From UHGV virus genome UHGV-0123062: a DNA stretch of 36,434 bases; one strand, written 5' to 3'. Below are positions 50 through 22,153 of this stretch, piece by piece. The stretch's first letter is position 1. Each line of letters starts with the position of its first letter. The position numbers and the translations under genes are program-made. The notes below the pieces were generated by a model. It was given only the letters and a program-made list of their open reading frames with translations. It did no database searches and had not been told where the DNA came from. Source of the DNA: a virus.

Positions 50-1042
50 CTAATCGATGGACAGTTTATGGACACTTTCAGCCAGCGGATTAAAGTTGAT
101 CGCGTCCAGTAAAAAGTCCGGCGAAAAATGAGCGTACGTCATTGTTTGCTGAATCGTTGCGTGCCCCAGGATTCGTTGCAACGTAACAATATTTCCGCCA
201 TTCATCATAAAGTGTGTGGCAAATGTATGACGCATGACATGCGTAGCCTGCCCCTTCGGCAAATCCGGTTTCACCTCCTGAAGAATCTCCCGGAACTTCA
301 GATAATCAACCTGATACAATAACCCCGTTCGACGGGTTTTAATCAGAGGCACGACCGAATCCGCCACAGGAACCGAACGGGATTTTCCGTTTTTGGTGTT
401 AAAGAACGTCACCCGGTTGCCAACGATATGCTCTCCACGTAGTTCCGATGCTTCACTCCATCGGGCACCAGTAGAAAGACACAGAATGGCAACACGACGC
501 GCATCACCCTCCAGTCGCTCAAGAAGCCGTTCAATCTCATCATCAGAAAGAAAGGCCATCTCTGTGTTCTGAACTTTCAGTTTTCGTATACCGCGTACAG
601 GGTTCGCGTTGTGAAAGACCTCAGCTTCAATCAGCACCGTGAACATGGTAGACAGTACGCATAAGTCACGATTAATACTGGACGGCATTAATCCGGCCTG
701 TAATTTCTCTGACCGATATTCAAGCATAAATTTTCGCGTCATCTGACTGGCGCGAGGATCTCCCATTTCACGAACAACCTTCCCTAGCCTAACCCTGTAG
801 CTATCCCCGTAAGCCTGATTACGCCCATCAAGCATCCACCACGCATCAAGCAGCTCTGATAATCGCCGCTGATCAGCTGGCTTAGCCTGCCATGGCTTGT
901 CATGAAAGTTCTGTAACACATACTTCTCAAACTCCTGAGCCTTTGATTTCAGGGCAAAGATTTTTCGAATCCGCTTTCCTTCCGCCCCCTGCGGTCTGAC
1001 ATCGACCTGATAACGTCCGTCTTTGAGTTGCTTAATCGACAT
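50..1042 (-). CDS. int: Tyrosine integrase (P2 Int-like)
   Basis: ORF 50..1057 trimmed to ATG at 1042 preceded by GGAGGGG RBS; C-terminal R..HxxR (HVMRHTFATH) and catalytic Tyr context (QQTMTYAHF) typical of tyrosine recombinases; position at prophage end. Confidence 0.9.
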   Translation of the reverse strand: MSIKQLKDGRYQVDVRPQGAEGKRIRKIFALKSKAQEFEKYVLQNFHDKPWQAKPADQRRLSELLDAWWMLDGRNQAYGDSYRVRLGKVVREMGDPRASQMTRKFMLEYRSEKLQAGLMPSSINRDLCVLSTMFTVLIEAEVFHNANPVRGIRKLKVQNTEMAFLSDDEIERLLERLEGDARRVAILCLSTGARWSEASELRGEHIVGNRVTFFNTKNGKSRSVPVADSVVPLIKTRRTGLLYQVDYLKFREILQEVKPDLPKGQATHVMRHTFATHFMMNGGNIVTLQRILGHATIQQTMTYAHFSPDFLLDAINFNPLAESVHKLSID

Positions 1043-1111: not shown

Positions 1112-1453
1112 TCAGCCAACATTGCGGCCTGATCGGGGTGATTTTTGGGTAATACCGATTGAAACCTGATCGCCCTCCGACTGAATAGATCCATCAAGAG
1201 AGAGAGCCGGAGCAATCTGCCCGGCGACAGGTAGCGTCTTATCTTTTATTAGCCACAGCATGTATTTTTCAAAGCGATCGACTTGCAGAACCGCCTCAAC
1301 GATTTTTGCTCTAGCGTTCTTTTGCCCCGATTCGTAATTCCTTATGGTTGCCAAAGACAACCCAGTAATATCCGCAAACTGCTTTTGTGTTAACCCTTCC
1401 GCCTTACGTATCTGACGTAACTTTTTTGCGTAGTCTATTGACAAGATAACCAT
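1112..1453 (-). CDS. Immunity repressor, HTH (P2 C-like)
   Basis: 113-aa ORF with helix-turn-helix (LTQKQFADITGLSLATIRNYESG); lies between int and the divergent cox-like gene; start taken at ATG 1453 rather than the TTG at 1507. Confidence 0.7.
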   Translation of the reverse strand: MVILSIDYAKKLRQIRKAEGLTQKQFADITGLSLATIRNYESGQKNARAKIVEAVLQVDRFEKYMLWLIKDKTLPVAGQIAPALSLDGSIQSEGDQVSIGITQKSPRSGRNVG

Positions 1454-1474
1454 TTGAGTATTAACCTCTCGCAC

Positions 1475-1498
1475 AAAGATAACCTTTTGGTTATCTTT
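1475..1498. promoter_or_regulatory. Perfect 24-bp palindrome AAAGATAACC-TTTT-GGTTATCTTT in the C/cox intergenic region; putative operator
   Basis: Seen directly; an extra half-site AAGATAACC at 1443..1451 overlaps the repressor start codon. Confidence 0.5.
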
Positions 1499-1557
1499 AC
1501 AAGCCAAAACAAACCATCACAAGGCGCGACAAGCGCACCAACGCAAGAGGATAACAA

Positions 1558-2079
1558 ATGCGGGACTTCATTGCCGATAAAGAGTTATCTGACCACCAAC
1601 CACTTCAGGAAAGTGACGCACTCAGCGGATCCATTGATGCCGCCAACGACGACGAGCACGAAGAAAACAAGAAAAAGCGTTCCTACAAAAAAGGAGCGAC
1701 TTTGCGGCTGGATGGTCCGATCGCCGGGCTTTGCTCTCTGGAAAAAGGCGCGGCATATATTGGGCTAACAAAATCTGCACTGCGCGTAGCCATTCATCGC
1801 GGTCAAATGCCGGGACACAAGACGCGCACAAACCCGGAAGATGAAAACTCAGACGGAGTATGGTGGTTTAACGCCAAAGAGTGGGACAAGTTGGCTGATG
1901 AGCTACCAGAGCACGAGCCCCCAGAATGGCACAACTGGAAAAGTTACTGGACGTATGACCGCCAGAAAAGGAAGTTCTCTCCAGCTAATAAAGAAGACTG
2001 CCAGACCATTAACGGTAAGCGAGTTTATACAGGCAGAAGCTCAAAACTGGACCAACTCAGAAACAACAGAGGCAACTAA
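1558..2079 (+). CDS. Cox-like excisionase/early regulator with long acidic N-terminal extension
   Basis: ATG 1558 with AGAGGA RBS; HTH-like segment (AAYIGLTKSALRVAIHRGQMP) and a GVWWFNAKEW segment resembling the P2 Cox C-terminal part (recalled from memory, not aligned); divergent from the repressor. Confidence 0.5.
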   Translation: MRDFIADKELSDHQPLQESDALSGSIDAANDDEHEENKKKRSYKKGATLRLDGPIAGLCSLEKGAAYIGLTKSALRVAIHRGQMPGHKTRTNPEDENSDGVWWFNAKEWDKLADELPEHEPPEWHNWKSYWTYDRQKRKFSPANKEDCQTINGKRVYTGRSSKLDQLRNNRGN

Positions 2080-2083
2080 TCGT

Positions 2084-2506
2084 ATGAAAACAAACACGTC
2101 AGATTTCACAATAACTATTTCAAAAAATGACCAAGCATTAATTGATAACCTGAAATACCTTGCGGAAAAACATAATAACGGACGAATTGCAATTAATTTA
2201 CGACACATCACAGGAGTAACAATTGTAACCAGTTACTGGCATCTATATCTAATCGCTAAATCAGTACTTGAAAACAAAGATTCTGTTGTCAATGGAAGAG
2301 ATATAGATACTCTTCCTGCACAAATCAAACCGATAGCCTATCAATTGCGTAATCGTTTTAAAAATGAAGGTGGGATTATATTTGACTTTCCCGCAGCTGT
2401 AGCCGTGAGCTTCTCTCGGGGGGATATACTTCACTCATTTCGTTTTGCTCTATCAGGTGACGAGACATTATGGCAGCTAGAAGATGCCGGGAGCAGCCCG
2501 GCATAA
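2084..2506 (+). CDS. Hypothetical protein, AT-rich accessory gene
   Basis: In-frame ATG at 2084 just after the cox-like stop (2077..2079); strongly AT-rich compared with flanking phage genes; the listed ORF 1841..2506 is an upstream extension overlapping the cox-like gene. Confidence 0.5.
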   Translation: MKTNTSDFTITISKNDQALIDNLKYLAEKHNNGRIAINLRHITGVTIVTSYWHLYLIAKSVLENKDSVVNGRDIDTLPAQIKPIAYQLRNRFKNEGGIIFDFPAAVAVSFSRGDILHSFRFALSGDETLWQLEDAGSSPA

Positions 2507-2512
2507 ATCAAA

Positions 2513-2704
2513 TTAAAAATCAACCAGTTGTGTGACAGGTGGGTATTTACGCTGAATTTTGTCAGTTACTAACGCCAGTAATATATGAATCTCTGTGTTT
2601 AATGCGTCTTTATCACCCGTCGTTTTTACCCTGGGAGGGTTAATGTTATCCAGAGCAGCACTAAGTTCACTCAACAAATTAACAACTTTTTTATCTTCTG
2701 ACAT
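2513..2704 (-). CDS. Hypothetical small protein (63 aa), convergent with 2084..2506
   Basis: AT-rich ORF on the minus strand, 7 bp from the stop of the upstream gene. Confidence 0.35.
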   Translation of the reverse strand: MSEDKKVVNLLSELSAALDNINPPRVKTTGDKDALNTEIHILLALVTDKIQRKYPPVTQLVDF

Positions 2705-2841
2705 GAAAACCTCTTAACAATTTAATTAAACATAAGCCAGGACCTGAACCGGCCAGTCCAAGTCCTAGACACACAAAAAAAATACCACAAATCAATACAA
2801 GGTGACACGAGTACACCTTACCGAAGGTACAGAGTTTTAAT

Positions 2842-3192
2842 ATGAAACTACAGCGCAATTCTTCACAGCAGCGCTTCCGCAACGGTGCGGAACGCCATGC
2901 TAACCGTTTCGCTACCAGTGCATCACGTAGCAACTCTCGCTACAGCCTGAGCGAAACACACGCAACGCCGGATGGCTACCCAGTAAAACAAATTGGTGAA
3001 CACACTTGGCTGATTGAAAAAGCAGGAATCGTGGTTCACAGATGCCAGCGCAACCCATTTACCGGAAACCGCATTTTTGCACTGAGCAACGGCGACAATC
3101 AGTTCGGGCAGGATTTCACATTGTACGAAGCACTTCGCACAGTTGATCGTCTGCTTCGCGGACAAAGTTTTATTAAACAGGCTGATTTATAA
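2842..3192 (+). CDS. Hypothetical early-region protein
   Basis: 116-aa ORF, co-directional with the early operon. Confidence 0.45.
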   Translation: MKLQRNSSQQRFRNGAERHANRFATSASRSNSRYSLSETHATPDGYPVKQIGEHTWLIEKAGIVVHRCQRNPFTGNRIFALSNGDNQFGQDFTLYEALRTVDRLLRGQSFIKQADL

Positions 3193-3202
3193 CAGGTGCT
3201 TT

Positions 3203-3481
3203 ATGACCAAAGAGCATGCACAAGGTGTATTTATTCGTTTTATTGATTTTCGCGGTGAACTGTTATTACGCGCATCAGCTATTGATGGAGTCGTTCCATC
3301 CGAAAAAAATGCAGCTACTTACGTTTATCTGAACGGCACGCGCCTGACCGTAGAACTTCCGTACCAGACTGTACACGAAATCATTAGCGAAGCGGAAAAA
3401 GCACGTAAGACTAATGGCGATGAACCCTATATCGAAATTATTTGTATGGATTCAGAAGCAGAAATTCAGAAAGCAGATTAA
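3203..3481 (+). CDS. Hypothetical early-region protein
   Basis: ATG at 3203 inside listed ORF 3143..3481; co-directional packing. Confidence 0.45.
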   Translation: MTKEHAQGVFIRFIDFRGELLLRASAIDGVVPSEKNAATYVYLNGTRLTVELPYQTVHEIISEAEKARKTNGDEPYIEIICMDSEAEIQKAD

Positions 3482-4576: not shown

Positions 4577-4791
4577 GCAGAAGGCGAATCACACGCAGGC
4601 ATCGCCGCACACACATGAATTCCTTACCGACGCTGAAAGAACTCATTCAACACGAGATCGCTGATTTCTGCGCAACGCTGGGGTCGCCTGGTGAACCGGA
4701 AACACCAGAAGCGATGCAGCGCGAACTCATGATGCGCATCGATAACGTTTTTGACTTTTTCCTGAATAACAAAAGAGAGCAATCAACATGA
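4573..4791 (+). CDS. Hypothetical protein with Arg-rich N-terminus, operon gene 2
   Basis: ATGA start/stop overlaps on both sides; N-terminus MSRRRITRRHRRTH. Confidence 0.5.
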   Translation: MSRRRITRRHRRTHMNSLPTLKELIQHEIADFCATLGSPGEPETPEAMQRELMMRIDNVFDFFLNNKREQST

Positions 4792-4991
4792 ACAAAAAGA
4801 CCTGGTTTCGCGCATACATGTGGGCGCTGGTATGCGTCCTCGTCTCTTTCATTCTGTATGCAGGACTACTCCCCCGAATGATTTCATCAGACAGCTCCTT
4901 CCTGGTATTGCTGGGCATTTTCATTGCCATGCTGTACCCGGCAGGCGTTGTTCGCCTTTTCAGTAAGTACATCAAGGAAATCAAGCAATGA
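4788..4991 (+). CDS. Small integral membrane protein (two predicted TM helices), operon gene 3
   Basis: Hydrophobic segments WALVCVLVSFILYAGLL and FLVLLGIFIAMLYPAGVV; ATGA coupling on both sides. Confidence 0.55.
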   Translation: MNKKTWFRAYMWALVCVLVSFILYAGLLPRMISSDSSFLVLLGIFIAMLYPAGVVRLFSKYIKEIKQ

Positions 4992-5818
4992 AGAAATTCA
5001 AACTCTTTCAGATTCTCCCGCTTTTTGCCGCCATCCTGCTGGTTGGTTGCGATCGCGTTGAGCCAGGTAATGTGGGAATCAAAGTCAACAAACTGGGCGA
5101 CGACAAAGGCGTCGGCGAAGTAGTTGGCGTTGGCCGCTACTGGACAGGCTGGAATACAGAGGTTTACATCTTCCCGACTTTCAAACAAATGAAGACTTAC
5201 GATGAGCCGTTCAACTTCCAGATGAGTGACGGCACAACCATCGGCTATCACATCGGCGTGGCCTACAAAGTTGATCCATCCAAAGTTACCACGGTGTTTC
5301 AGACCTACCGCAAAGGCGTGGACGACATTACCGACACTGACCTGCGCCAGAAGATCGCCGACGCACTCAACCGACTGGCCAGCAAAATGACCACCGATAA
5401 ATTTATCGACGGTGGCAAGTCTGAACTGCTGGATTCAGCACTTAAAGACATTCAGGCAGAAATGACACCTATCGGCATTCAGGTAATGAGCCTCTCTTAT
5501 GTGGGTAAGCCGGAATACCCACCAACCGTTATCGACAGCATTAATGCCAAAGTCACGGCAAACCAGAAAACCCTGCAACGTGAACAGGAAGTCAAGCAAC
5601 GCGAAGCTGAAGCCAACATGCTGCGCGCAGAAGCTGCCGGACAAGCCGATGCCATTCGCACAAAAGCCCAGGCTGAAGCCGACGCCATTCGTTTACGCGG
5701 TGAAGCTCTGCGCCAGAATCCCGGCGTTATGGAGCTGGAAGCAATCAACAAATGGAACGGCACGCTGCCGCAATACATGACCAGCAACACCGCTGTTCCG
5801 TTTGTTCCGGTGAAGTAA
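4988..5818 (+). CDS. SPFH/band-7 (stomatin/prohibitin-like) lipoprotein
   Basis: Lipoprotein signal with lipobox (LLVGC); central region consistent with an SPFH domain; C-terminal Ala/Glu/Arg-rich coiled-coil-like segment (REAEANMLRAEAAGQADAIRTKAQAEADAIRLRGEALR). Confidence 0.65.
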   Translation: MKKFKLFQILPLFAAILLVGCDRVEPGNVGIKVNKLGDDKGVGEVVGVGRYWTGWNTEVYIFPTFKQMKTYDEPFNFQMSDGTTIGYHIGVAYKVDPSKVTTVFQTYRKGVDDITDTDLRQKIADALNRLASKMTTDKFIDGGKSELLDSALKDIQAEMTPIGIQVMSLSYVGKPEYPPTVIDSINAKVTANQKTLQREQEVKQREAEANMLRAEAAGQADAIRTKAQAEADAIRLRGEALRQNPGVMELEAINKWNGTLPQYMTSNTAVPFVPVK

Positions 5819-5869: not shown

Positions 5870-5885
5870 AGTATGCCGTTCTCAC

Positions 5886-6120
5886 AAAAAAACCGCTTGC
5901 CATGCCGCAATCAGTCAGGTTACATTTTCGCTGCACCTCATAAAACGGGTGCCGGGTTTCGCAGCCTGCTGACAACCAAAGCGCACAACCGCGCCAGCGG
6001 TTTTTTTGTGCGTACTGTATTGCCACGTTTTTTTCGCGTCAGAATTATGGCGGGGCGTACGGGGCCGACTTCGGTCGGGCCGGGTTCTTTGGTTGCCGGT
6101 ACTGCGAACCCCGTACGTCT
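5886..6120 (+). ncRNA. Structured non-coding region; candidate small RNA or regulatory element
   Basis: No credible ORF; 11-bp inverted repeat AAAAAAACCGC (5886..5896) / GCGGTTTTTTT (5997..6007); terminator-like ACCGC-gcca-GCGGT plus U7 at 5988..6007; GCCGAC-TTCG-GTCGG hairpin enclosed by a 9-bp long-range stem CGTACGGGG (6056..6064) / CCCCGTACG (6110..6118). Confidence 0.3.
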
Positions 6121-6186
6121 CGCCACCCACAGTTTCGCAGCTCTGGATGGTGAGTTTTCAAAACTTACAACCAAAGAGGCCACACC

Positions 6187-6489: not shown

Positions 6490-6855
6490 ATGATTCTCGC
6501 CAACGACTTTCTTGAATACCTGCTCAACACAGAGCGTGATCTTGCCGTTCGCGTGCGTGAACGTTATGACATGTACCTGAAATCCCTGCCTGTACCGCAG
6601 CTCGCTGACGGAAAGATTGTTATTGATGGTCGCTACATGATTGACAGCCACGAGGGAAATTACAGGCTTTACCGCATTGAAGGTGGCACTCCGTCCGTTA
6701 TTGGCATTTACCAGCGCCCATCCTCTGCAATCGTCGATGTGATTGCCGACAGCATCCGCATCACACATCGCCATGCCGACACAGAAGACACCGTGCTGGA
6801 AATTCAGCGGCTGGCTGCCGTTTGCCGTGACACCCTGAACGGTATGACGCAGTAA
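6490..6855 (+). CDS. Hypothetical protein immediately upstream of A
   Basis: 121-aa ORF with AGAGGA RBS; tightly packed before A. Confidence 0.55.
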   Translation: MILANDFLEYLLNTERDLAVRVRERYDMYLKSLPVPQLADGKIVIDGRYMIDSHEGNYRLYRIEGGTPSVIGIYQRPSSAIVDVIADSIRITHRHADTEDTVLEIQRLAAVCRDTLNGMTQ

Positions 6856-6861
6856 ATCAGT

Positions 6862-9684
6862 ATGACGACAGAGTACATCAGGGACTGGCAACAACCGCGC
6901 CACGCAGTGGGGCGTGAAGGAACGGGGATCCCCGCACCTGAATCCGCGCTTTCCTCCTGGCTGGATGCCTACCGGGCAGAGAACGAGCGCCGACAGGAAA
7001 AGGCTGATGCGGCGTTCTCCGCCACGCCGCTGGGCAACCTGATTAATAAAAGCCTGGATGCACAGGAAAAACAGGACAAAACTATCACACTGGCAGGAGA
7101 CGCCAGAAAACAGGCACGCGGCGCGGTGGATGAAGCCATGGCCTCGCTGCGCCTGCTGCCGTCCTATCTGCGCGATCCGCTTATTCGCCACCTCTCCTTC
7201 CTGCGCAAAAAACAGGAAGCCGATCGCCGGAAAGGCAAAAAGAGCTGGCAGGCGGAACGCTATGCACGCGGAACCCTGCGCAAAATATTCGAACGTCTGG
7301 ATCGCACTGACGGACGCTGGCTGACACCGGGTTATCGCTCCCTTGCCGGACGCGAACGCCTGGACGATTTGCTTTACCTGCCGCAGCTCAACAAACACCA
7401 GATACAGACGCTGGCCACCATGACGGCGGCGATGTTCAGCAGCACCTTCGAAAAACTCTGCGATGGCTTTGGCGCGACCGATGGCGAACTGACCATGGAT
7501 GTAACGCTGAAGACGTATCAGATGCTGGCCCGCATGGCGTTACACCTGCACATCATGCCTCCACATTATGACGCACTGACAACAGATAAAGACCGGAGGA
7601 ACGAACCGGACACGGAGCTGCTGCCGGGCGCAGTCCTTCGCCTGACCTGTGCGGAATGGTGGAAACGCAAACTGTGGCTGTTACGTTGCGAGTGGAGAGA
7701 AGAACAACTCCGCGCCGCCTGTCTGGTTTCCAGAAAAACATCGCCCTATCTGAGCCAGGACGCATTAAGCGAGTTTCGCGCACAGCGCGAGAAAACACGC
7801 GATTTCCTGAAAAGTTTCATGCTGGAAAATGAAGACGGGTTCACGATTGATCTCGAGACGGTGTATTACGCGGGAGTAAGTAACCCGGTTCACCGTAAGG
7901 CAGAAATGATGGCCACCATGAAGGGGCTGGAACTTCTGGCCGAAGCCCGTGGCGACAGAGCGGTGTTTCTGACTGTCACCTGCCCGTCAAAATACCACGC
8001 AACAACGGAGAACGGTCATCCGAATCCCAAATGGAACGGGGCCACCATGCGCGACTCCAGCGATTACCTGGTTAACACGTTTTTTGCGGCGGTCCGCAAA
8101 AAACTGAACCGCGACGGTCTTCGCTGGTATGGCATCCGCACGGTGGAGCCTCACCATGACGGCACTGTGCACTGGCATATGATGGTCTTTGCACATCCGG
8201 ACGAGATTGAAACCATCGTGTCCCACGTCTGCGATATTGCCATTCAGGAAGACCGCCACGAGCTGGGCGATGACATAACTCCGCGTTTTAAAGCGGAGTA
8301 CGTCGACGGCTCAAAAGGCACGCCAACCAGCTACATCGCCACCTACATCGGAAAGAACCTGGACAGCCGCGCCGTGGATGGTATCGACCCGAAAACGGGC
8401 AAGCCACGCGTTGACCACGAAACCGGAAAATCAATGGCCGAGAGCGTGGAGCGCGCCATCGGCTGGGCGCGCCTTCACCGGGTCCGCCAGTTCCAGTTCT
8501 TTGGCATCCCCTCCCGTCAGGTGTGGCGTGAACTGCGCCGCCTTGCCAGCCAGATGGCACGCAACCCGGAAGGCCCGCAACGGCTGAAGGATGACGCAAT
8601 GGATGCAGTGCTCGCTGCCGCTGATGCCGGGTGTTTTGCCTCCTACATTGAAAAACAGGGCGGCGTACTTGTTCCACGCAAAGACTACCTGATTCGCACC
8701 GCCTACGACCTCGCAGATGAGCTGAACGATTACGGCGAACAGAGCGTACAGATTTACGGGATCTGGTCACCACTCATCGGGGAGTCTTCCCGTGTGTGCA
8801 CACATCCGGATAACTGGAAGCTGGTAAGACGTAAACCGGAAGCGGAAGACAGCGCCCGCGAAAATGGTTTTGACCTTCAGGGCGGCCCTGCCGCCCCTTG
8901 GACTCGTGGCAATAACTGTCCCCGTGTACAGGAAACGGACAACAACGGGACAGAACAGCCGGAAGAACGGCCAGCACCGTGGCCGCAGCTTCCTGACGGC
9001 GTTGACGTGAACGAATGGATGCGCTCACTGAAACGGCACGAACGCCGGGCGCTGATGCGTTCGCTTCGTGACAAACAGGCAAAAAACAGCAGTGATGAAA
9101 TGCAGAGCTGGACACAGAGCCGCAAACAGCAGCGGCCTTTGCCTGATAACCACGAATTACTCGCTAAAGAATGGCGGGAATCTGCCGAATCTCTCGGCCT
9201 GCATATCGGTGAACAGCAGATGCAGCACCTGTTACGGGGCGGCAGCCTGTACGTTGACGGCAGCATCATTGCACCGCAGGGATTTGAAATTGTACGCAAA
9301 CCGGATACCCGCCCGGACAGCCGAATCACGCAGCTCTGGCAGCGCCTGAGCCGTAATCACGGCGTAAGCAGCACAGAGATCCGCCATAACCCAGTCGCCA
9401 GCTATCTGGAACAACTGGGGGCATCAGACCCCGAAGCCGCCGCACGTCTGGCATCCACACTTCAGCAGGACCAGAACACCATGCCCCCCCCCGTTACCGT
9501 GCTTTCTGACATGCTGCGCGCCATCCGTGACGCAGAGCACGCACAGAGAATCAGTGAAACCACTGAACGCGCCCACCGCAAAGCAGACCTGCTGCGGGGT
9601 AGCCTGACCAGTGGAAACAAAAAACAGACAGAAACGGGACTCACAAATCCCGTAAATGAGCAAAAAACGCGCCGCGATATATGA
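6862..9684 (+). CDS. A: Rolling-circle replication initiator endonuclease (P2 A-like), with long C-terminal extension
   Basis: HUH motif (HWHMMVFAHPDE) and Y-x3-Y active-site pair (SYIATYIGK); 940 aa, longer than P2 A as recalled. Confidence 0.9.
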   Translation: MTTEYIRDWQQPRHAVGREGTGIPAPESALSSWLDAYRAENERRQEKADAAFSATPLGNLINKSLDAQEKQDKTITLAGDARKQARGAVDEAMASLRLLPSYLRDPLIRHLSFLRKKQEADRRKGKKSWQAERYARGTLRKIFERLDRTDGRWLTPGYRSLAGRERLDDLLYLPQLNKHQIQTLATMTAAMFSSTFEKLCDGFGATDGELTMDVTLKTYQMLARMALHLHIMPPHYDALTTDKDRRNEPDTELLPGAVLRLTCAEWWKRKLWLLRCEWREEQLRAACLVSRKTSPYLSQDALSEFRAQREKTRDFLKSFMLENEDGFTIDLETVYYAGVSNPVHRKAEMMATMKGLELLAEARGDRAVFLTVTCPSKYHATTENGHPNPKWNGATMRDSSDYLVNTFFAAVRKKLNRDGLRWYGIRTVEPHHDGTVHWHMMVFAHPDEIETIVSHVCDIAIQEDRHELGDDITPRFKAEYVDGSKGTPTSYIATYIGKNLDSRAVDGIDPKTGKPRVDHETGKSMAESVERAIGWARLHRVRQFQFFGIPSRQVWRELRRLASQMARNPEGPQRLKDDAMDAVLAAADAGCFASYIEKQGGVLVPRKDYLIRTAYDLADELNDYGEQSVQIYGIWSPLIGESSRVCTHPDNWKLVRRKPEAEDSARENGFDLQGGPAAPWTRGNNCPRVQETDNNGTEQPEERPAPWPQLPDGVDVNEWMRSLKRHERRALMRSLRDKQAKNSSDEMQSWTQSRKQQRPLPDNHELLAKEWRESAESLGLHIGEQQMQHLLRGGSLYVDGSIIAPQGFEIVRKPDTRPDSRITQLWQRLSRNHGVSSTEIRHNPVASYLEQLGASDPEAAARLASTLQQDQNTMPPPVTVLSDMLRAIRDAEHAQRISETTERAHRKADLLRGSLTSGNKKQTETGLTNPVNEQKTRRDI

Positions 9685-9730: not shown

Positions 9731-9760
9731 GATTAATTAATCAACATAAGGAAAAGCGAC

Positions 9761-10720
9761 ATGAAAATTTGTATCGACGACGGCTCCACCAACATCAAGC
9801 TGGCATGGACTGAGAACGGCGAACGCCGCAACGCCATCAGCCCGAACAGCTTCAAGTCGGAATGGTCTGCGCCGTTCGGTGGCACGCAGCCCGCGAACTA
9901 CATGCTTGATGGCGTGCGCTATGGTTTTGATCCGGTCAGCGATCGCTTTGTCCAGACGACCGACACGCAATACCAGTACAGCGATGTGAATGTAATTGCC
10001 ATTCATCACGCGCTGGTCAAATCAGGCATCACACCACAGGAAGTGGATGTGGTTGTCACCCTGCCACTGAGCGAGTATTTCGACACAAACGCACAGCCGG
10101 ACATGGCCAACATCAACCGCAAAAAAGCGAACGTTATGCGCCCGGTGGAGTACCAGAACGGCGAAGCATTCACTATCCGTAACGTGCGGGTTATGCCTGA
10201 ATCCATTCCGGCTGGCTTTAAGGCACTGGCTGACATGAGTCCGTTTGAATCCCTGCTGATTGTGGATTTAGGCGGAACCACGCTGGATGTGGCAAAGGTT
10301 CAGGGACAACTGGCAGGTATCAGCCAGGTGTTTTGCGATCCACACGTAGGCGTTTCCCTGATGTCCGATGCCGTACTGTCGGTGATGGCCACTAACGGTA
10401 TGCGTACCAGTCACCACATCGCCAATACCATTATCGAACATCGCCATGATGAAGCCTGGCTGCGCCAGCACATCCACAATGACGCGCATTACGCCAGCCT
10501 GATGGCGGTTATTCGTGAAAAGGAAGAAACACTGAAACAACGCGTGATCCGCGCGCTGGCGGGTTTTTCGGGTTACGGGCGGGTGATGATTGTCGGTGGC
10601 GGGGCAGAAATTGTGGCACCCGCTATCCGCGAAGCCTGCGGAGTTAATGCGACTTTCATCGCGGACGGGGTGCCACAGTTTGCTCTGGTTAATGGGCTGT
10701 ACGCAATGGACAAGGAGTAA
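9761..10720 (+). CDS. parM: ParM/StbA-family actin-like partition ATPase
   Basis: N-terminal phosphate-1 motif (ICIDDGSTNIKLAW), ISPNSFK, YSDVNVIAIHHAL, VMPESIPAG, LIVDLGGTTLD and IVGGGAE match my recollection of plasmid R1 ParM along the whole length; AAGGA RBS. Confidence 0.85.
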   Translation: MKICIDDGSTNIKLAWTENGERRNAISPNSFKSEWSAPFGGTQPANYMLDGVRYGFDPVSDRFVQTTDTQYQYSDVNVIAIHHALVKSGITPQEVDVVVTLPLSEYFDTNAQPDMANINRKKANVMRPVEYQNGEAFTIRNVRVMPESIPAGFKALADMSPFESLLIVDLGGTTLDVAKVQGQLAGISQVFCDPHVGVSLMSDAVLSVMATNGMRTSHHIANTIIEHRHDEAWLRQHIHNDAHYASLMAVIREKEETLKQRVIRALAGFSGYGRVMIVGGGAEIVAPAIREACGVNATFIADGVPQFALVNGLYAMDKE

Positions 10721-10724
10721 ACCA

Positions 10725-11036
10725 ATGACGACACCAACCAGACGGATAAGTTTCTATCTGAAGCCCGCCGCCGTCAAGAACGAAGGCGAAGCATGCGCCT
10801 GGCTGGACAGCCTTACACCAGAAGCCCGCAAAAGTGGTCAACGCGTGGCTTTTCTGGCCGGGCTGGCACTACTGAAAATGAATCCGGCAGAGGCTTACCG
10901 ACTGGCTGCATGGGCTGATGATGAGGCGTTATCAATGACACAAACCAGGACAGAACGCCCCGCGTCACAGCCAGTATCAACCGCACAGATAACCAGTCAG
11001 ATGGCCGGAAATATCCGGGCGTTATTTCCCGAATAA
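10725..11036 (+). CDS. parR: ParR-like ribbon-helix-helix partition adaptor
   Basis: Immediately downstream of parM with AAGGAG RBS; N-terminal beta-strand segment (RRISFYLKP), FLAGLALL and C-terminal NIRALFPE resemble R1 ParR as recalled; start trimmed to ATG 10725 inside listed ORF 10590..11036. Confidence 0.65.
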   Translation: MTTPTRRISFYLKPAAVKNEGEACAWLDSLTPEARKSGQRVAFLAGLALLKMNPAEAYRLAAWADDEALSMTQTRTERPASQPVSTAQITSQMAGNIRALFPE

Positions 11037-11041
11037 CACAA

Positions 11042-11065
11042 CATCAGGGCGCATCCGCCCTGATG
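11042..11065 (+). other. Perfect 10-bp stem / 4-nt loop hairpin (CATCAGGGCG-catc-CGCCCTGATG) between parR and the next gene
   Basis: Seen directly; no adjacent T-run, so terminator function is uncertain. Confidence 0.4.
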
Positions 11066-11099
11066 ACTTTAACCCGGGAGCATAAACAAGGGGGACACA

Positions 11100-11744
11100 A
11101 TGCAACACATTGACAGAGAAAAAGCGCAGCGACTGATTGAGCGGATGGAAGCGCTGGCGAAAGAAGAAAATGTCAACATCCAAAAAATAGCTGAATGTGG
11201 CCAGATAGTTCTTCGTCGTGAAAAAGACCTCAAACAACTGATGTCTGGCGAAACCAGCAAAACATGGACTTCAGGCGAGAAGACGGTTTATTGCAGCTTC
11301 TGCAATAAATCCCAGTACGAAGTCACAAAGGTGATTGCCGGACCGTCTGTTTACATCTGCAATGAGTGCGTGGATTTGTGCAATGAAATTATCAGGAAAG
11401 AAGTGACAGACAAAAAGGAAAAAAAACGCATGAACAGAAAACAGAAACAAGAGTTGAAATACTTCTTACGTAAAGAAATTGCCAGGCTTGAAGATGCAGA
11501 GTCACAATCATCAGAAATTCCGTTCGGAATGGATATCAACGACGCCCGTATGCTCCAGGCATACCGCATAGCTCAGGCTGCACTACAGGCAAAACCGTCA
11601 GATGGACTGGTTAGAGCAGTACATTTCTATGAACAGGTAAAGCGTGAGAATCCGCCAGTCGAAACTGGAGTATGGAAAGACGCTATTGACTGGGTGACCA
11701 AAGAGGCTTGCCAAGCTGTAGACATTGGCATCAAAGGAGAGTGA
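11100..11744 (+). CDS. ClpX zinc-binding-domain (ZBD) mimic protein
   Basis: Residues ~64-100 ([39 protein letters not shown]) closely match the C4 zinc-ribbon of the ClpX N-terminal domain as I recall it from E. coli ClpX; no AAA+ ATPase module follows; flanking regions are unrelated to ClpX. Confidence 0.75.
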
Positions 11745-11745
11745 T

Positions 11746-12009
11746 ATGGCAACTTTGACAAAAAAAGAGCAAGCATGGTTGAGCGAATTACAGGACGTTC
11801 TTGATCGCTGTCCATCACCGAAAAAAATTGGTTTTTACACCATTGGCGATAAAAGCATTTACCTGTATGACCTACGCCGCATGGATGAAATCATGGAGGC
11901 TCTTGATAATCGTTCGTCAATGGATTGGTGTGTTGCTGTCCATGATATGAATGCAGGGTTTGATGAAAAGATTTTGTTCCCCTCATCAGTTGAAAGCACA
12001 GCAGGATAA
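11746..12009 (+). CDS. Hypothetical protein (87 aa), coupled to the ClpX-ZBD gene
   Basis: ATG 11746 is 1 nt after the upstream stop, with AGGAG RBS; followed by a strong terminator. Confidence 0.5.
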   Translation: MATLTKKEQAWLSELQDVLDRCPSPKKIGFYTIGDKSIYLYDLRRMDEIMEALDNRSSMDWCVAVHDMNAGFDEKILFPSSVESTAG

Positions 12010-12100: not shown

Positions 12101-12520
12101 TTTGAACAACTTTTTACCCTTCCGACCCGCATGGCGGCTGGATCCGTCAAGGATCCGTGCGTGCACAAAAAAACGCGTTTTTTCTGCGCGCAGGTGACGG
12201 GGGAACAGCCCGCGTTTCAGGGGGTAAATAGCATTCCCTAAACGATGTCGCAGAGATACAACAGAATGGCTGTATTTCTCACGCTGAGCGTGAAAAAGAC
12301 GTGAGGGCTTTTGATTTGATGGGGTGAAAGGTAAGGCCGTCAAAATCGCACTGAGACGGCGAGAACATGCAGTCAACGCGGTGGGATTGCGTAAGAGTCT
12401 GGCTGTCGATGATGGCAATAAGCAGGAAAGCGTCGTGAAATTATCTGATTGATACAGGAGCTGGAGAGTCGGGGCATAAATTTTTTATGCCCCGGCGAAG
12501 CAGCAGACAAGCGAAGCGCG
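12101..12520. other. Non-coding region expected to contain cos (position not resolved)
   Basis: By P2 synteny cos lies between the A-side accessory genes and Q; contains a direct repeat GGATCCGT x2 (12141..12160), a GC-rich stretch GACGGGGGAACAGC (~12195..12208) and a 10-bp-stem hairpin (12472..12494). Confidence 0.3.
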
Positions 12521-13567
12521 TCAGGATGTGGGCTGGGTGTCCAGCAGTGCATAAGGGTTAAAGCGGATCACCTCTTCGCCAAGCCAGTCATTGATGTGCT
12601 TCATGGCCTCCATGACGGGCATCAGCTCGTTAATTGCGTAAACCCGCGCGGCCTTCTCCACATCACCAAACGCACTTTTTTCGCCCGGCATCGCCCCCAT
12701 CAGTTGCGGCGGAACGCGGTGCGCAGCCAGCACATCATCACGGGATGCCGCCTTAACATTCATGAACTCATCCTTTGCGGTGATCTGCTGGAACGGCAAA
12801 ATTTGCACCCCCTCTTTGCCCCCGTTGGGCGCATGGATGAGCACGTTTTTAAACGCACCACCACCACGCGCACCCTGTAGCGTTTCTTTCAGGGAGTCCA
12901 TGCTTTCGCGGTTTACCTGCGCTGCACCGATGTAGATGATGCACCCGGCGTGGGATCCATTGTCGTAATACAGTTTTCTGAACATGTCCGCCGAATGAGA
13001 CAGGCTGGCCGAGAGTAATGCGCCAAGATATTCCGGCATGCCGTAAATTTCCTGGTTAATGTCAGGATTCATCAGGTGGCACACTTTGCCAGGGCGAAAC
13101 TGAAACGCGTCCTTGCCATCCTGCACATACCACCATGATTCAAGATCGCTTCCGCGTCGCATGTATTTCGCCAGGGCGTGCCGTAATTTAAGCGGTTCGC
13201 CGAGCATATTGCTTCGAAGCTCAAGGAATGCGTTACCGAACACAAACCAGTCCAGCGCCAGCGCCGAGAAATCCTGCCGGGAAAGCAGCGGGTGCGGAAT
13301 ATAGCAGCCGAGCAATACATTGCGCTTAAAGTAAAGCGCAGACTGATGCCAGGACGTTTGCCGGGCAGCTCTTGCCAGACCGTACCAGTCCACCGGGGTT
13401 TCGTACCACCGCCCGTTATCAGCACAGTACATATTGTCCAGCAGGTCATGCCCGGTCAGGCGATAAGGACCATCAAATGTGAATGCACTGAGCGATGATT
13501 CTTTCCTGAGCGCATCAGCGAGATCAATGCGTGAACTCATGCGCACTTTTTTATTTTTTCTGCTCAT
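12521..13567 (-). CDS. Q: Portal protein (P2 Q-like)
   Basis: 348 aa; start ATG overlaps the terminase stop (ATGA); synteny with P on the minus strand. Confidence 0.85.
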   Translation of the reverse strand: MSRKNKKVRMSSRIDLADALRKESSLSAFTFDGPYRLTGHDLLDNMYCADNGRWYETPVDWYGLARAARQTSWHQSALYFKRNVLLGCYIPHPLLSRQDFSALALDWFVFGNAFLELRSNMLGEPLKLRHALAKYMRRGSDLESWWYVQDGKDAFQFRPGKVCHLMNPDINQEIYGMPEYLGALLSASLSHSADMFRKLYYDNGSHAGCIIYIGAAQVNRESMDSLKETLQGARGGGAFKNVLIHAPNGGKEGVQILPFQQITAKDEFMNVKAASRDDVLAAHRVPPQLMGAMPGEKSAFGDVEKAARVYAINELMPVMEAMKHINDWLGEEVIRFNPYALLDTQPTS

Positions 13568-19742: not shown

Positions 19743-20134
19743 AGCTCTGGCCCACGCTTGGCGTCGCTTTCCTTCTGATTACATCCATGCGTCTGTCGTG
19801 GTCGCTGGGCCGGGAGAACGCCAGAAACGAAGCGCAGGCCAGCACCCTGAAAAGTACCGTCGACACACTGAATATCATCAGCGCCGGGGTACAGGATATG
19901 CAGCAGGTGCTGGCTCAGCTCCGCGCGGAAAATCAGCAACGCAATCAGGACGGAGAGGTAAGACGTGAACAGCTACGCAACGATATTGCAAAAGATGAAT
20001 GCGCCCACGCTTTGCCTGACGCTCGTTTTACTGACAGGTTGCGCAGGCACGCAGAACGCGCCAGGGCCAGCGCCGTCAGTCCGGCTTATACCGCAGACGC
20101 TGACCATGCCGGTAACGCCTCCCCCCTTCCCTGA
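19739..20134 (+). CDS. lysB: i-spanin (Rz / LysB-like)
   Basis: N-terminal TM segment (LWPTLGVAFLLITS), charged coiled-coil-like middle; ATGA overlap with the endolysin. Confidence 0.65.
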   Translation: MKLWPTLGVAFLLITSMRLSWSLGRENARNEAQASTLKSTVDTLNIISAGVQDMQQVLAQLRAENQQRNQDGEVRREQLRNDIAKDECAHALPDARFTDRLRRHAERARASAVSPAYTADADHAGNASPLP

Positions 20135-20276
20135 CCCACCCACATGGGGAAACCTCGGAATATGGGGCGACCGCCTTCTGGATGCACTGGAAACCTGTAA
20201 CGCGGATAAACGGGCCATTGCTGAACTGGATAAGAGAATAGCCGAACTGACACACCAGACGGGAGTAACACAATGA
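19995..20276 (+). CDS. lysC: o-spanin lipoprotein (Rz1 / LysC-like), embedded in +1 frame of the i-spanin gene
   Basis: Lipobox LLTGCAG, Pro-rich body; overlaps lysB out of frame; the listed ORF begins at GTG 19965. Confidence 0.6.
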   Translation: MNAPTLCLTLVLLTGCAGTQNAPGPAPSVRLIPQTLTMPVTPPPFPDPPTWGNLGIWGDRLLDALETCNADKRAIAELDKRIAELTHQTGVTQ

Positions 20277-22153
20277 CCAGTAAGAACTTTGCACTGATTA
20301 CAGCCATGACACAGGCTGAACTGACTCAAAAGGTGAATGAACATCTTGCGAAAGGGTGGCATCTTCAGGGGGAGACGCGGGTTGCCTACGAACCCGGCAC
20401 CCCGTGGTATCTAATGCAGGCAATGGTGGCCGATGGCACTACAGACATCTCACCTGATTCCCCCCAGCACGGCAGCGTGCCGGAGTGGTATTACGTGGTG
20501 GTACTTGCTGGTCAATCCAATGCCATGTCATATGGTGAGGGAATGCCGCTGCCGGATTCTTACGATGCGCCCCACCCACGCATTAAGCAACTGGCCCGTC
20601 GCAACACAGTGACTCCCGGTGGTAAAGCATGCGCATTTAACGACATCATTCCGGCAGACCACTGCCTGCATGATGTTCAGGATATGAGCGCACTGAATCA
20701 TCCGAAGGCAGACCTGAGCAAAGGGCAGTACGGCTGTGTCGGCCAGGGCTTACATATTGCCAAAAAACTGCTTCCGTATATCCCGAATAACGCGGGGATC
20801 CTGCTGGTACCATGCTGTCGTGGTGGTTCGGCATTCACCCAGGGCGCGGAGGGGACATTCAGTGCGGACACGGGGGCCAGCCAGGATTCGGCACGCTGGG
20901 GTGTGGGTAAACCGTTATATCAGGACCTGATCGCACGCACCAAAGCGGCATTACAGAAGAACCCGAAAAATGTGTTGCTGGCGGTGTGCTGGATGCAGGG
21001 CGAATTTGACATGAGCGCTGCCACCTACGCACAGCAACCGGACCTGTTCACGGCCATGCTGAAGCAGTTCCGTACTGACCTTTCCGGATTTAACGCGCAG
21101 TGCCATGGCGGCAGTGCTGCAGTTGTACCGTGGATTTGTGGCGACACGACGTATTACTGGAAAAACACATACGGCACACAGTATGACTCCGTCTACGGCG
21201 CGTACAAAAACAGGGAGAGCGACAACGTTTTCTTTGTGCCGTTCATGACCGACGGTAACGGCAACAACACGCCCACCAACTTACCGGCAGAAGACCCGGA
21301 TATTGCTGATGCAGGTTATTACGGCGCGCAATCCCGTAGTAATGGTAATTGGGTATCATCAAACCGCCCGACACATTTCAGTTCATGGGCGCGCAGGAGC
21401 ATTATTCCGGATCGTATGGCAACCGCTATTCTGAACGCAGCCGGGCGCACCTCAGCCTTCATCAGTGGTAAGGCACCGGAAATCAAACCCTCGCCCGGCG
21501 GCGACACTCCATCGGGGCCGTCTGATGGTGACACATCCGTTCATACAGTCTCCCTGCTGCCGACAGCCGGAGAGGCTGCTGCGCAGGGCTGGACCATCAC
21601 CGGCGGCAGTGTTGCGCTGGAAGATGGTGTGTTTAAGGTTACCAAGCAGAGCAATAAAACCTGGTCCCTGATGCATCCGGTGGATGACGCAGTCTCCCTG
21701 CTGACACGGGGTGGCAGACTGAGCTGTAAGTTTCGACTGTCAGGCGCACTGACCAACAACCAGTTCGGTCTGGGAATTTATCTGTATACCGATGTAGCGT
21801 TACCTGACGTCGTGGCGATGACCGGGACTGGTAACCCGTTCCTGATGTCGTTCTTCACCCAGACCACAGGCGGCAAACTGAATCTGATGCATCACAAGAA
21901 AGCCGGAAACACAAAGTTGGGCGAGTTCGGGAATTACAGTAACGACTGGCAGACGCTGGAGCTGGTGTTCACCGCCGGCAGTGCCACGGTTACTCCGAAA
22001 CTGAATGGAGTGGCTGGCCCGGCATTCCAGGTCATAAAAGACAGTCTGACACTGGGGCTGAATGCGCTGACGTTAACTGATATCACTAAAAATGCCGCGT
22101 ACGGCGTCGATATCGGCAGCCTGGTGCTGGAAATCAATAATCCCGCAGCATAA
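20273..22153 (+). CDS. NanS-p-like SGNH/SASA esterase with N-terminal DUF1737-like region and C-terminal beta-sandwich-like domain
   Basis: 626 aa; GQSNAMS catalytic-serine motif as in sialate O-acetylesterases; Pro/Gly-rich linker (PEIKPSPGGDTPSGPSDGD); inserted between lysis genes and R. Confidence 0.7.
   Translation: MTSKNFALITAMTQAELTQKVNEHLAKGWHLQGETRVAYEPGTPWYLMQAMVADGTTDISPDSPQHGSVPEWYYVVVLAGQSNAMSYGEGMPLPDSYDAPHPRIKQLARRNTVTPGGKACAFNDIIPADHCLHDVQDMSALNHPKADLSKGQYGCVGQGLHIAKKLLPYIPNNAGILLVPCCRGGSAFTQGAEGTFSADTGASQDSARWGVGKPLYQDLIARTKAALQKNPKNVLLAVCWMQGEFDMSAATYAQQPDLFTAMLKQFRTDLSGFNAQCHGGSAAVVPWICGDTTYYWKNTYGTQYDSVYGAYKNRESDNVFFVPFMTDGNGNNTPTNLPAEDPDIADAGYYGAQSRSNGNWVSSNRPTHFSSWARRSIIPDRMATAILNAAGRTSAFISGKAPEIKPSPGGDTPSGPSDGDTSVHTVSLLPTAGEAAAQGWTITGGSVALEDGVFKVTKQSNKTWSLMHPVDDAVSLLTRGGRLSCKFRLSGALTNNQFGLGIYLYTDVALPDVVAMTGTGNPFLMSFFTQTTGGKLNLMHHKKAGNTKLGEFGNYSNDWQTLELVFTAGSATVTPKLNGVAGPAFQVIKDSLTLGLNALTLTDITKNAAYGVDIGSLVLEINNPAA

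Follow-up and report, generated by a model that had tools for sequence, protein, structure and literature searches.

In phage lambda (cII/oop) and in phage 186, the gene that comes next after the cro- or cox-type gene faces a short converging leftward unit, which ends at or within the 3' end of this gene, and such geometry gives transcriptional interference or antisense control. In sieB/esc of phage P22, an effector expressed in the lysogen is combined with an early factor which the phage itself encodes and by which its growth is spared, esc lying within sieB on the same strand. For P2, the main published hotspot is situated between gpA and gpQ (Rousset et al., 2022, PMC9122126). The two genes described here are found at another place of a related phage. 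The window, i.e., the whole 36.4-kb stretch of DNA that was analysed, has been identified as a P2-like prophage, complete and of the P88 (Xuanwuvirus) type, which adjoins dmsA in E. coli; chromosomes of the ST131 type, e.g., MS10860, match it with 100% identity. Its left end is ordered int (50-1042, minus strand), the C repressor gene (1112-1453, minus strand), cox (1558..2079, plus strand), orf140 (2084..2506, plus strand), orf63 (2513..2704, minus strand), the DUF4761 gene (2842..3192, plus strand), a 92-aa ORF, and DUF4754. The cox gene encodes a Cox-family DNA-binding protein of 173 aa (Pfam Phage_Cox, E=1.9e-7; phrog_23196, E=1e-116) and opens the early rightward operon, and the DUF4761 gene (Pfam DUF4761, E=8.5e-69) is the first conserved early gene past the cargo slot and hence its right-hand anchor. 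The cassette that carries orf140 and orf63 lies between these two genes and not between gpA and gpQ (gpA at ~6860-9682, portal at ~12265-13311, in converted window coordinates). We consider it very probable that orf140 and orf63 form a real, conserved two-gene accessory module in this cargo slot. Our main reading, to which we assign a probability of roughly 35%, is that they would form a phase-opposed pair of antagonists whose action is tied to the lysis-lysogeny state.

Both frames had been picked out in an earlier, sequence-only reading as convergent ORFs with a gap of 6 bp, and their coordinates are confirmed by the ORF list, the stops facing each other tail-to-tail at a distance of 6 nt (2507-2512). 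PGAP annotates each of them as a CDS for a hypothetical protein (WP_000856387.1 for orf140, WP_001287828.1 for orf63). The frame of orf140 is nested in a longer one (1841..2506 in the ORF list), for which PGAP places the start of the 140-aa product at 2084, and this upstream longer frame is absent in the UTI89 variant. The orf140 protein is predicted to be alpha/beta, soluble, and near-neutral (pI 6.9, GRAVY -0.17), the 63-aa orf63 protein is soluble and acidic (GRAVY -0.20), and neither has a hydrophobic or transmembrane segment. That no motif could be recognised in either protein has held up under systematic comparison, as sequence and profile searches of Pfam, PHROGs, NCBIfam, PADLOC, and PDB have given no significant match for either, and domain and family searches with nine homologues and alternative partners have likewise remained without a significant match. 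In PADLOC-DB v2, orf140 and orf63 are without a defence-model match at E<=10, and the nine homologues and alternative partners are without one at E<=1; the 155-aa partner in locus L025 has a sub-threshold Cas7f resemblance (E~0.01). Several resemblances have been tried and set aside, namely one of residues 67-101 of orf140 to DUF1408/phrog_5450 (E=0.02-0.04), for which the other family members have no match, a LAGLIDADG match discounted as weak (E=3.9), an internal duplication of an alpha-beta-beta-alpha unit (hhalign P=0.004, probability 9%, not significant), and a likeness to Phd/YefM antitoxins in the pattern beta-alpha-beta-beta-alpha, where hhalign against a three-sequence Phd/YefM/Axe alignment has shown no N-terminal match (probability 0.7%). 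AlphaFold2 models of orf140 have reached a pLDDT of 42.5 from the single sequence and 50.3 with a 5-sequence alignment and are unusable, and Foldseek searches with these low-confidence models against PDB and BFVD have returned nothing below E=0.4. In the literature, no report has been found on the orf140 and orf63 proteins, on the function of ECs1072, or on a cox-proximal hotspot. Judged by all these comparisons, both proteins come from previously undescribed families.

The extent of the inserted DNA can be read from a natural empty site. In prophage L004 (NZ_CM136152), int, C, and cox are 99.6-99.8% identical to those of the window, exactly positions 2077-2763 are missing, and cox passes directly into the DUF4761 gene. 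The AT-rich cassette of 687 bp (2077..2763, with BLAST breakpoints at 2076/2077 and 2763/2764) is therefore a discrete piece of cargo, and the sequence-only reading, which had placed the pair as an insertion after the cox-like gene, has proved literally right. The cassette even supplies the cox stop codon TAA (2077-2079) and replaces the last 12 codons of cox, the protein having 173 aa in the window (1558-2079) and 185 aa in L004 (2483-3040), where it reads on into the backbone. Since alleles of both lengths occur, the 173-aa one being widespread, the final 12 residues of this Cox type appear dispensable. The GC content amounts to 38.5% in orf140, 37.0% in orf63, and 38.0% in 2077-2763, compared with 50.0% in cox, 49.3% in the DUF4761 gene, and 53.2% in the whole window. 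Indeed, among the 687-bp stretches of the window, whose GC content averages 53.3% (sd 4.4), 2077-2763 ranks lowest with 38.0%, and the 0.14% of all such stretches in the 36-kb window that are equally low overlap it without exception. The pair had correctly been called AT-richer than the flanking phage genes, which had been taken to point to a recent horizontal acquisition. The horizontal part of this claim is borne out by the empty site, the composition, and a mosaic distribution, but the recent part is not, as a low GC content is common to all four lineages of the pair described below (0.37-0.45 vs. 0.48-0.55 in the flanks) and is therefore a sign of foreign or accessory origin rather than of recency. 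Target-site duplications, terminal inverted repeats, and transposon-like ends have been looked for around the cassette and none has been found; it has thus arrived by recombination and not by transposition. An imperfect 22-nt direct repeat brackets orf63 (AATCAAATTAAAAATCAACCAG at 2506-2527 and AATTTAATTAAACATAAGCCAG at 2719-2740, 77% identical), which may be due to chance in AT-rich DNA or may be a trace of the joining of the small to the large gene.

The slot between cox and the DUF4761 gene is a small cargo hotspot. At loci fetched around DUF4761 relatives and measured where BLAST found cox, the distance between the two genes has been 36-37 bp when empty, as in P88 (37 bp), and otherwise ~200-270, 717, 760-762 (the present cassette), 897, or 1224 bp. 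Among members of one lineage, backbone sequence on the right side of the minus-strand gene remains conserved to ~10 nt from its start codon, even where the gene itself differs, so that these genes evidently swap as cassettes behind a shared upstream region. Other cargo of the slot likewise consists of a plus-strand gene or extension that converges on a minus-strand gene, and L101 carries an additional plus-strand gene of 172 aa converging with a minus-strand gene of 107 aa. A differently oriented cargo gene occurs downstream of cox in L062 (1830-2036), L031, and L035; it accounts for the distance of ~200-270 bp in the latter two, is co-directional with the early operon and encodes a 68-aa protein with two hydrophobic segments (two-TM) and no Pfam match, which might be a membrane-acting exclusion or host-interference factor. 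In the Salmonella locus L005, another converging pair, unrelated to the module, comes after it (259 aa, 6766-7545, plus strand; 103 aa, 7493-7804, minus strand), its two genes overlapping by 53 nt. One 21-nt initiation region, TTAACGAGGTACAAAATGAAA, stands ahead of the plus-strand gene in either pair (5986-6006 and 6751-6771) and has the look of a recombination scar or cassette junction. In L052, a 27-aa ORF (MSNIKSVDAFFARPKEQRDAWLLWLGL, 2033-2116) separates cox from the large gene; it matches the C-terminal end of another Cox/Apl-type protein, of 95 aa, which occurs in L062, and appears to be a remnant, as if the module had been transferred along with the 3' end of a different cox gene. The gpA-gpQ hotspot of the window prophage, which is cos-proximal, is occupied as well (~9759-11753, plus strand), by genes for a ParM-type segregation ATPase and a 'plasmid partitioning/stability family' protein and by two hypothetical ORFs, none of the four being annotated as a defence gene.

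Relatives of the two proteins are few and strongly diverged. A word-indexed search of 5.8 billion proteins has returned near-identical E. coli copies only, an exhaustive HMMER search of 1.84 billion cluster representatives has added one true distant relative of orf140, a 138-aa Salmonella protein with 33-34% identity, and a profile search has found one further Salmonella-type sequence. The Salmonella large gene resides in a P2-like prophage downstream of int-C-cox. On the minus strand, an ORF of 62 aa meets it tail-to-tail, overlapping it by 4 nt, and is a clear homologue of orf63 (BLASTP 7e-16, 40% identity). By synteny, two further E. coli lineages have been recovered, L010 with a pair of 131 and 64 aa and L041/L103 with a pair of 135-137 and 60 aa. 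The large family consequently comprises four diverged lineages in P2-like prophages of Escherichia and Salmonella, whose members are linked transitively by phmmer (window to Salmonella P0014 1e-15, P0014 to L041 2.5e-14, L041 to L010 1e-20), and the small proteins are linked likewise (window to Salmonella 4e-14, L041 to L010 1.4e-13, Salmonella to L041 7e-5; BLASTP 1.3e-15 between L010 and L041). Amino-acid identity between lineages is 17-35% for the large and 26-40% for the small proteins. Large-family proteins have a pI of 5.1-6.9. Two motifs, M-S/N-x-D at the N-terminus and K-Y-P, are shared by the small family, as is a PP turn. According to Nei-Gojobori estimates of dN/dS (~0.3 for the large, 0.25-0.57 for the small gene), both genes are under purifying selection. 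A good ribosome-binding site precedes every small gene, and the tail-to-tail gap has been -4 to +13 nt across the four lineages, i.e., it varies within 17 nt though the DNA can no longer be aligned. Taken together, the conserved frames, the dN/dS values, the ribosome-binding sites, and the stable gap indicate that both genes are protein-coding and that the converging pair is an old, maintained arrangement. These data also bear on the proposal that orf63 is a chance ORF and orf140 the sole gene, which would be compatible with the shortness of the frame (63 aa), the AT-rich DNA, and the absence of a called promoter. Yet a chance frame would hardly keep its length and its motifs (MS-D, PP, KYP) in four lineages at 26-40% identity, match Salmonella at 7e-16, show a dN/dS below 1, and carry a ribosome-binding site at every copy, and this proposal is regarded as effectively excluded by the comparison. 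An unconserved orf63 next to an ordinary P2-family early gene, which the sequence-only reading had named as the outcome that would speak against it, has not been encountered, since orf63 is conserved across lineages and the orf140-family gene is missing from P88 and most relatives and is thus no general P2-family early gene.

How firmly the two genes belong together has been assessed in a census of 54 fetched loci with a large-family gene, which represent 28 distinct sequences. A small-family gene stands tail-to-tail with the large gene in 22 of the 28, and a small-family gene without a large gene has been seen in zero cases. Wherever the upstream gene has been examined, the large gene lies downstream of cox, and the module is found behind at least four different cox types as well as with a heteroimmune C in UTI89. 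In that strain, cox and the cassette are 99% identical to the window and the C repressor only 75%, so that the block has been shuffled between immunity types. As the two genes are found together at the same place in distant relatives also, they probably form a working two-part accessory module. The main rival to the phase-opposed pair holds that orf140 and orf63 are two independent cargo genes sharing a slot, orf140 as an early accessory gene, expressed first upon entry, e.g., for anti-defence or host takeover, and orf63 as an unrelated lysogenic-conversion moron in the orientation that the slot favours, with no partnership between them. It can draw on the remaining 6 of the 28 distinct loci, in which an unrelated minus-strand gene converges on the spot of the small gene, so that the large gene is able to persist without its small partner. 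Among these alternative partners are a 78-aa protein and a 155-aa 'ECs1072 family' protein (NF033230), the latter also present in E. albertii, and the large proteins paired with either of them differ in their C-terminal extension; in all, the large gene has been seen with three other kinds of converging partner. The reverse situation is represented in the sample by one prophage, L039/L114, in which an intact small gene is retained beside a frameshifted large gene. Furthermore, one and the same cox type occurs with four different downstream states, and the few invariant residues of the large family (L23, L26, Y51, G97) point to a binding protein more than to an enzyme, which would suit an independent accessory gene. 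The congruent divergence of the two neighbours is expected from linkage alone and is no proof of interaction. Against independence stand the small family, which never occurs without the large gene in its 22 distinct loci, and the spacing, whose confinement to 17 nt over four unalignable lineages is unusually stable for a highly mosaic region. Independent cargo is taken as a possible but somewhat unlikely account.

A classical toxin-antitoxin addiction module, in which one protein would be a toxin and the other a labile antidote and the prophage would thereby be stabilised, is a further rival, the sequence-only reading having pointed to toxin-antitoxin or exclusion modules among small convergent pairs of phage early regions. 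Two small adjacent genes with conserved pairing on a mobile element are what such an addiction module would look like. The genes are, however, convergent in every lineage and thus share no promoter and form no co-directional operon. No toxin or antitoxin family is matched in Pfam, NCBIfam, or PADLOC (RelE/ParE, MazF, Doc, HipA, VapC, Phd/YefM, RHH, AbrB, and HTH), and the hhalign comparison with Phd/YefM sequences is negative. Neither protein is a small hydrophobic peptide; a type I system of a small hydrophobic toxin and an antisense RNA is not found either, both proteins being soluble and the antisense partner being a conserved protein-coding gene. The family gene follows cox at all sites with an examined upstream gene, and plasmids are nearly devoid of it, plasmid records containing only 2 identical copies of the cassette, one of them within a 542-kb record. 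In addition, loss or replacement of either gene is tolerated while the other remains. With neither a toxin-antitoxin nor a defence-model match, without a co-directional operon, and with a large gene that persists beside unrelated partners, the toxin-antitoxin reading is not supported and is regarded as improbable. An exclusion-type role of the small gene is possible.

The signals around the two genes are summarised best by following each transcript. The start of orf140 lies 4 nt past the cox stop (2-6 nt in two other lineages) and no promoter of its own has been found; therefore, its transcription presumably starts at the early promoter Pe. For orf63, a ribosome-binding site, AAGAGG, is placed 5 nt ahead of the ATG. 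At its downstream side, RNA folding has revealed a GC-rich hairpin (ATGCCGGG-AGCAG-CCCGGCAT, 2484..2504, minus strand) that overlaps the 3' end of orf140 and is a candidate terminator of the leftward orf63 transcript. It is followed by a weak U-tract on the minus strand and by an A-rich tract on the plus strand, and the equivalent hairpin of L010 is followed by UUUUUCUUUU on the minus strand; a consensus terminator scan has not called the hairpin at 2484..2504. A second hairpin, with a 14-bp stem and a terminator-like flag on the minus strand, lies in the orf63 leader across the right boundary of the cassette (2737..2768, minus strand). The 91-nt leader folds with an MFE of -22.5 kcal/mol (z = -2.3), a comparable leader hairpin is visible in the sequence of the Salmonella locus, and the structure may be a candidate attenuator, stabiliser, or operator. 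No consensus sigma-70 promoter has been called upstream of the small gene in any lineage. A motif search has yielded a candidate extended -10 element, TGgTATTTT (2779..2787, minus strand), in the phage backbone just outside the cassette, and motifs of the TG-N-TAT type are found 34-67 nt upstream of the leftward ATG in L010, L041, L103, L052, L101, L102, and the unalignable Salmonella locus L005. As the element is present in the empty site L004 too, it argues weakly for an orf63 promoter, and it is with due reserve that TGgTATTTT at 2787-2779 might be supposed to drive leftward transcription.

From the converging geometry, opposite phases of expression are suggested for the two genes, and it is this geometry together with the long-term co-retention of the genes that has led us to the phase-opposed antagonistic pair. 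The orf140 protein would be made only when Pe fires, at infection or induction. The orf63 gene would form a separate leftward unit, with its own ribosome-binding site, the leader hairpin, the terminator-like hairpin, and the weak promoter in the backbone. Its expression would take place in the lysogen, and converging transcription from Pe would silence it at the lytic switch. In one version of this scheme, the small protein would act in the lysogen, e.g., by excluding other phages or by damping a host or phage function, and the early large protein would neutralise or replace it, so that the prophage's own lytic cycle could proceed. The same geometry would also suit a lysis-lysogeny control module like lambda cII/oop or 186 cII/pE, with orf140 as an establishment factor and the leftward unit as antisense control or as read-through towards C and int. 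The position of orf140 in the early operon as the next gene after cox, a leftward transcript that converges on it and would stop inside its 3' end, and the common direction of this unit with C and int all fit such a module. But for a CII-type establishment factor no helix-turn-helix or other DNA-binding domain has been detected, the large proteins being near-neutral or acidic, and the leftward ORF is conserved as a protein and not merely as RNA, with no Rfam match in 1400-3300. Moreover, the module is missing from P88 and from an otherwise identical prophage and thus stands outside the core switch, so that a control module is considered a poor candidate. Extending the phase-opposed pair beyond this cassette, one may speculate that the post-cox slot is a 'lysogeny-only' expression site created by converging transcription, in which orf140/orf63 would be the founding phase-coupled two-gene system of a small lysogen effector, for exclusion or host modulation, and an early lytic counter-factor by which the development of the phage itself is protected, the same rule applying to the 78-aa, the ECs1072-family, and the 172- plus 107-aa cassettes; this generalisation is regarded as rather unlikely.

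The cassette is present in 272 of 5426 complete E. coli genomes, in one copy each and always with at least 95% identity, and matches to the C-cox region occur in 324 genomes of this set. Accordingly, about 5% of complete E. coli genomes harbour the module, among them pandemic ST131 and UTI89, a model uropathogen. The deposited phage genomes that contain the cassette number only three, all of the same prophage type as the window; the phage collection has been searched by tblastn with two large-family members (50,697 phage records). In a scan of GTDB species representatives, a first profile has given no match and a second one E. albertii only, and a metagenome scan has yielded only 3 close relatives. 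What had been an orphan pair has become a defined family whose architecture is fixed and whose boundaries are known exactly; an empty-site control and partner swaps are provided by nature, so that a clean genetic test is possible. If a lysogen effector and a lytic counter-factor were indeed combined in it, it would be a new kind of prophage-encoded system and the cox-proximal slot would be worth mining; otherwise, it would simply add to the phage ORFan pairs of mosaic regions. The object itself is an ordinary one, phage cargo, with an unusually stable and testable architecture and a presence in clinically prominent lineages.

Other parts of the same prophage have attracted attention as well. 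In the early region, a 67-aa membrane protein gene overlaps by 4 nt with the gene for a 276-aa SPFH-domain lipoprotein (4788-5818, plus strand), the homologous pair of P88 being labelled 'membrane protein' and 'lipoprotein'. Further downstream in this region, Rfam assigns IsrK (5933-6007, 65.9 bits) and then the C4 antisense RNA (6043-6130, 87.1 bits) to the plus strand of 5933-6130, the stretch in which PGAP calls an 'ash family protein' pseudogene (~5871-6134); the latter may be a mis-call of an RNA-based immunity/anti-repressor module like c4-icd-ant of P1/P7. Between the lysis and tail genes, a 626-aa DUF6645 protein is encoded (~20017-21897, plus strand), probably by another cargo gene in the late region.

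Compared with known systems, the cassette resembles phage morons and the P2 genes old, tin, and fun/Z in several respects. It is present or absent at a precise site between near-identical phage genomes (as seen in L004), it differs in composition from the neighbouring phage genes with its lower GC content (38.0% vs. 53.3%), it lies between conserved genes, and its expression in the prophage is predicted. Concerning the promoter and terminator that a moron owns, a terminator-like hairpin is found past orf63 and a weak extended -10 candidate of the backbone upstream of it. In contrast to morons and the P2 conversion genes, only the leftward gene looks autonomous here, whereas the rightward gene forms part of the early lytic operon; the orf140 and orf63 proteins are unrelated to Old, Tin, and Fun (tblastn of two large-family members, 50,697 phage records), and the cassette follows cox instead of occupying the gpA-gpQ or tail-gene hotspots (PMC9122126). 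With the P2-like defence hotspots, the cox slot has in common that variable cargo, in alternative sets of genes, is situated between conserved anchors (PMC9122126; bioRxiv 10.64898/2026.02.27.708500), but none of the cargo genes encountered at the cox slot has a PADLOC model match. Type II toxin-antitoxin pairs are likewise conserved pairs of small genes on mobile elements, yet orf140 and orf63 converge, have no known toxin or antitoxin fold, keep to one syntenic site, and have exchangeable partners. As in lambda cII/oop and 186, a converging leftward unit ends at the 3' end of the first gene after cox, here orf140, but in the present case this unit encodes a conserved protein, the rightward protein is without a DNA-binding domain, and the module is dispensable. 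By analogy, the logic proposed for orf63 and orf140 would come close to that of P22 sieB/esc, with a lysogen effector and a self-sparing early factor, but in orf140/orf63 the two parts are separate genes that converge.
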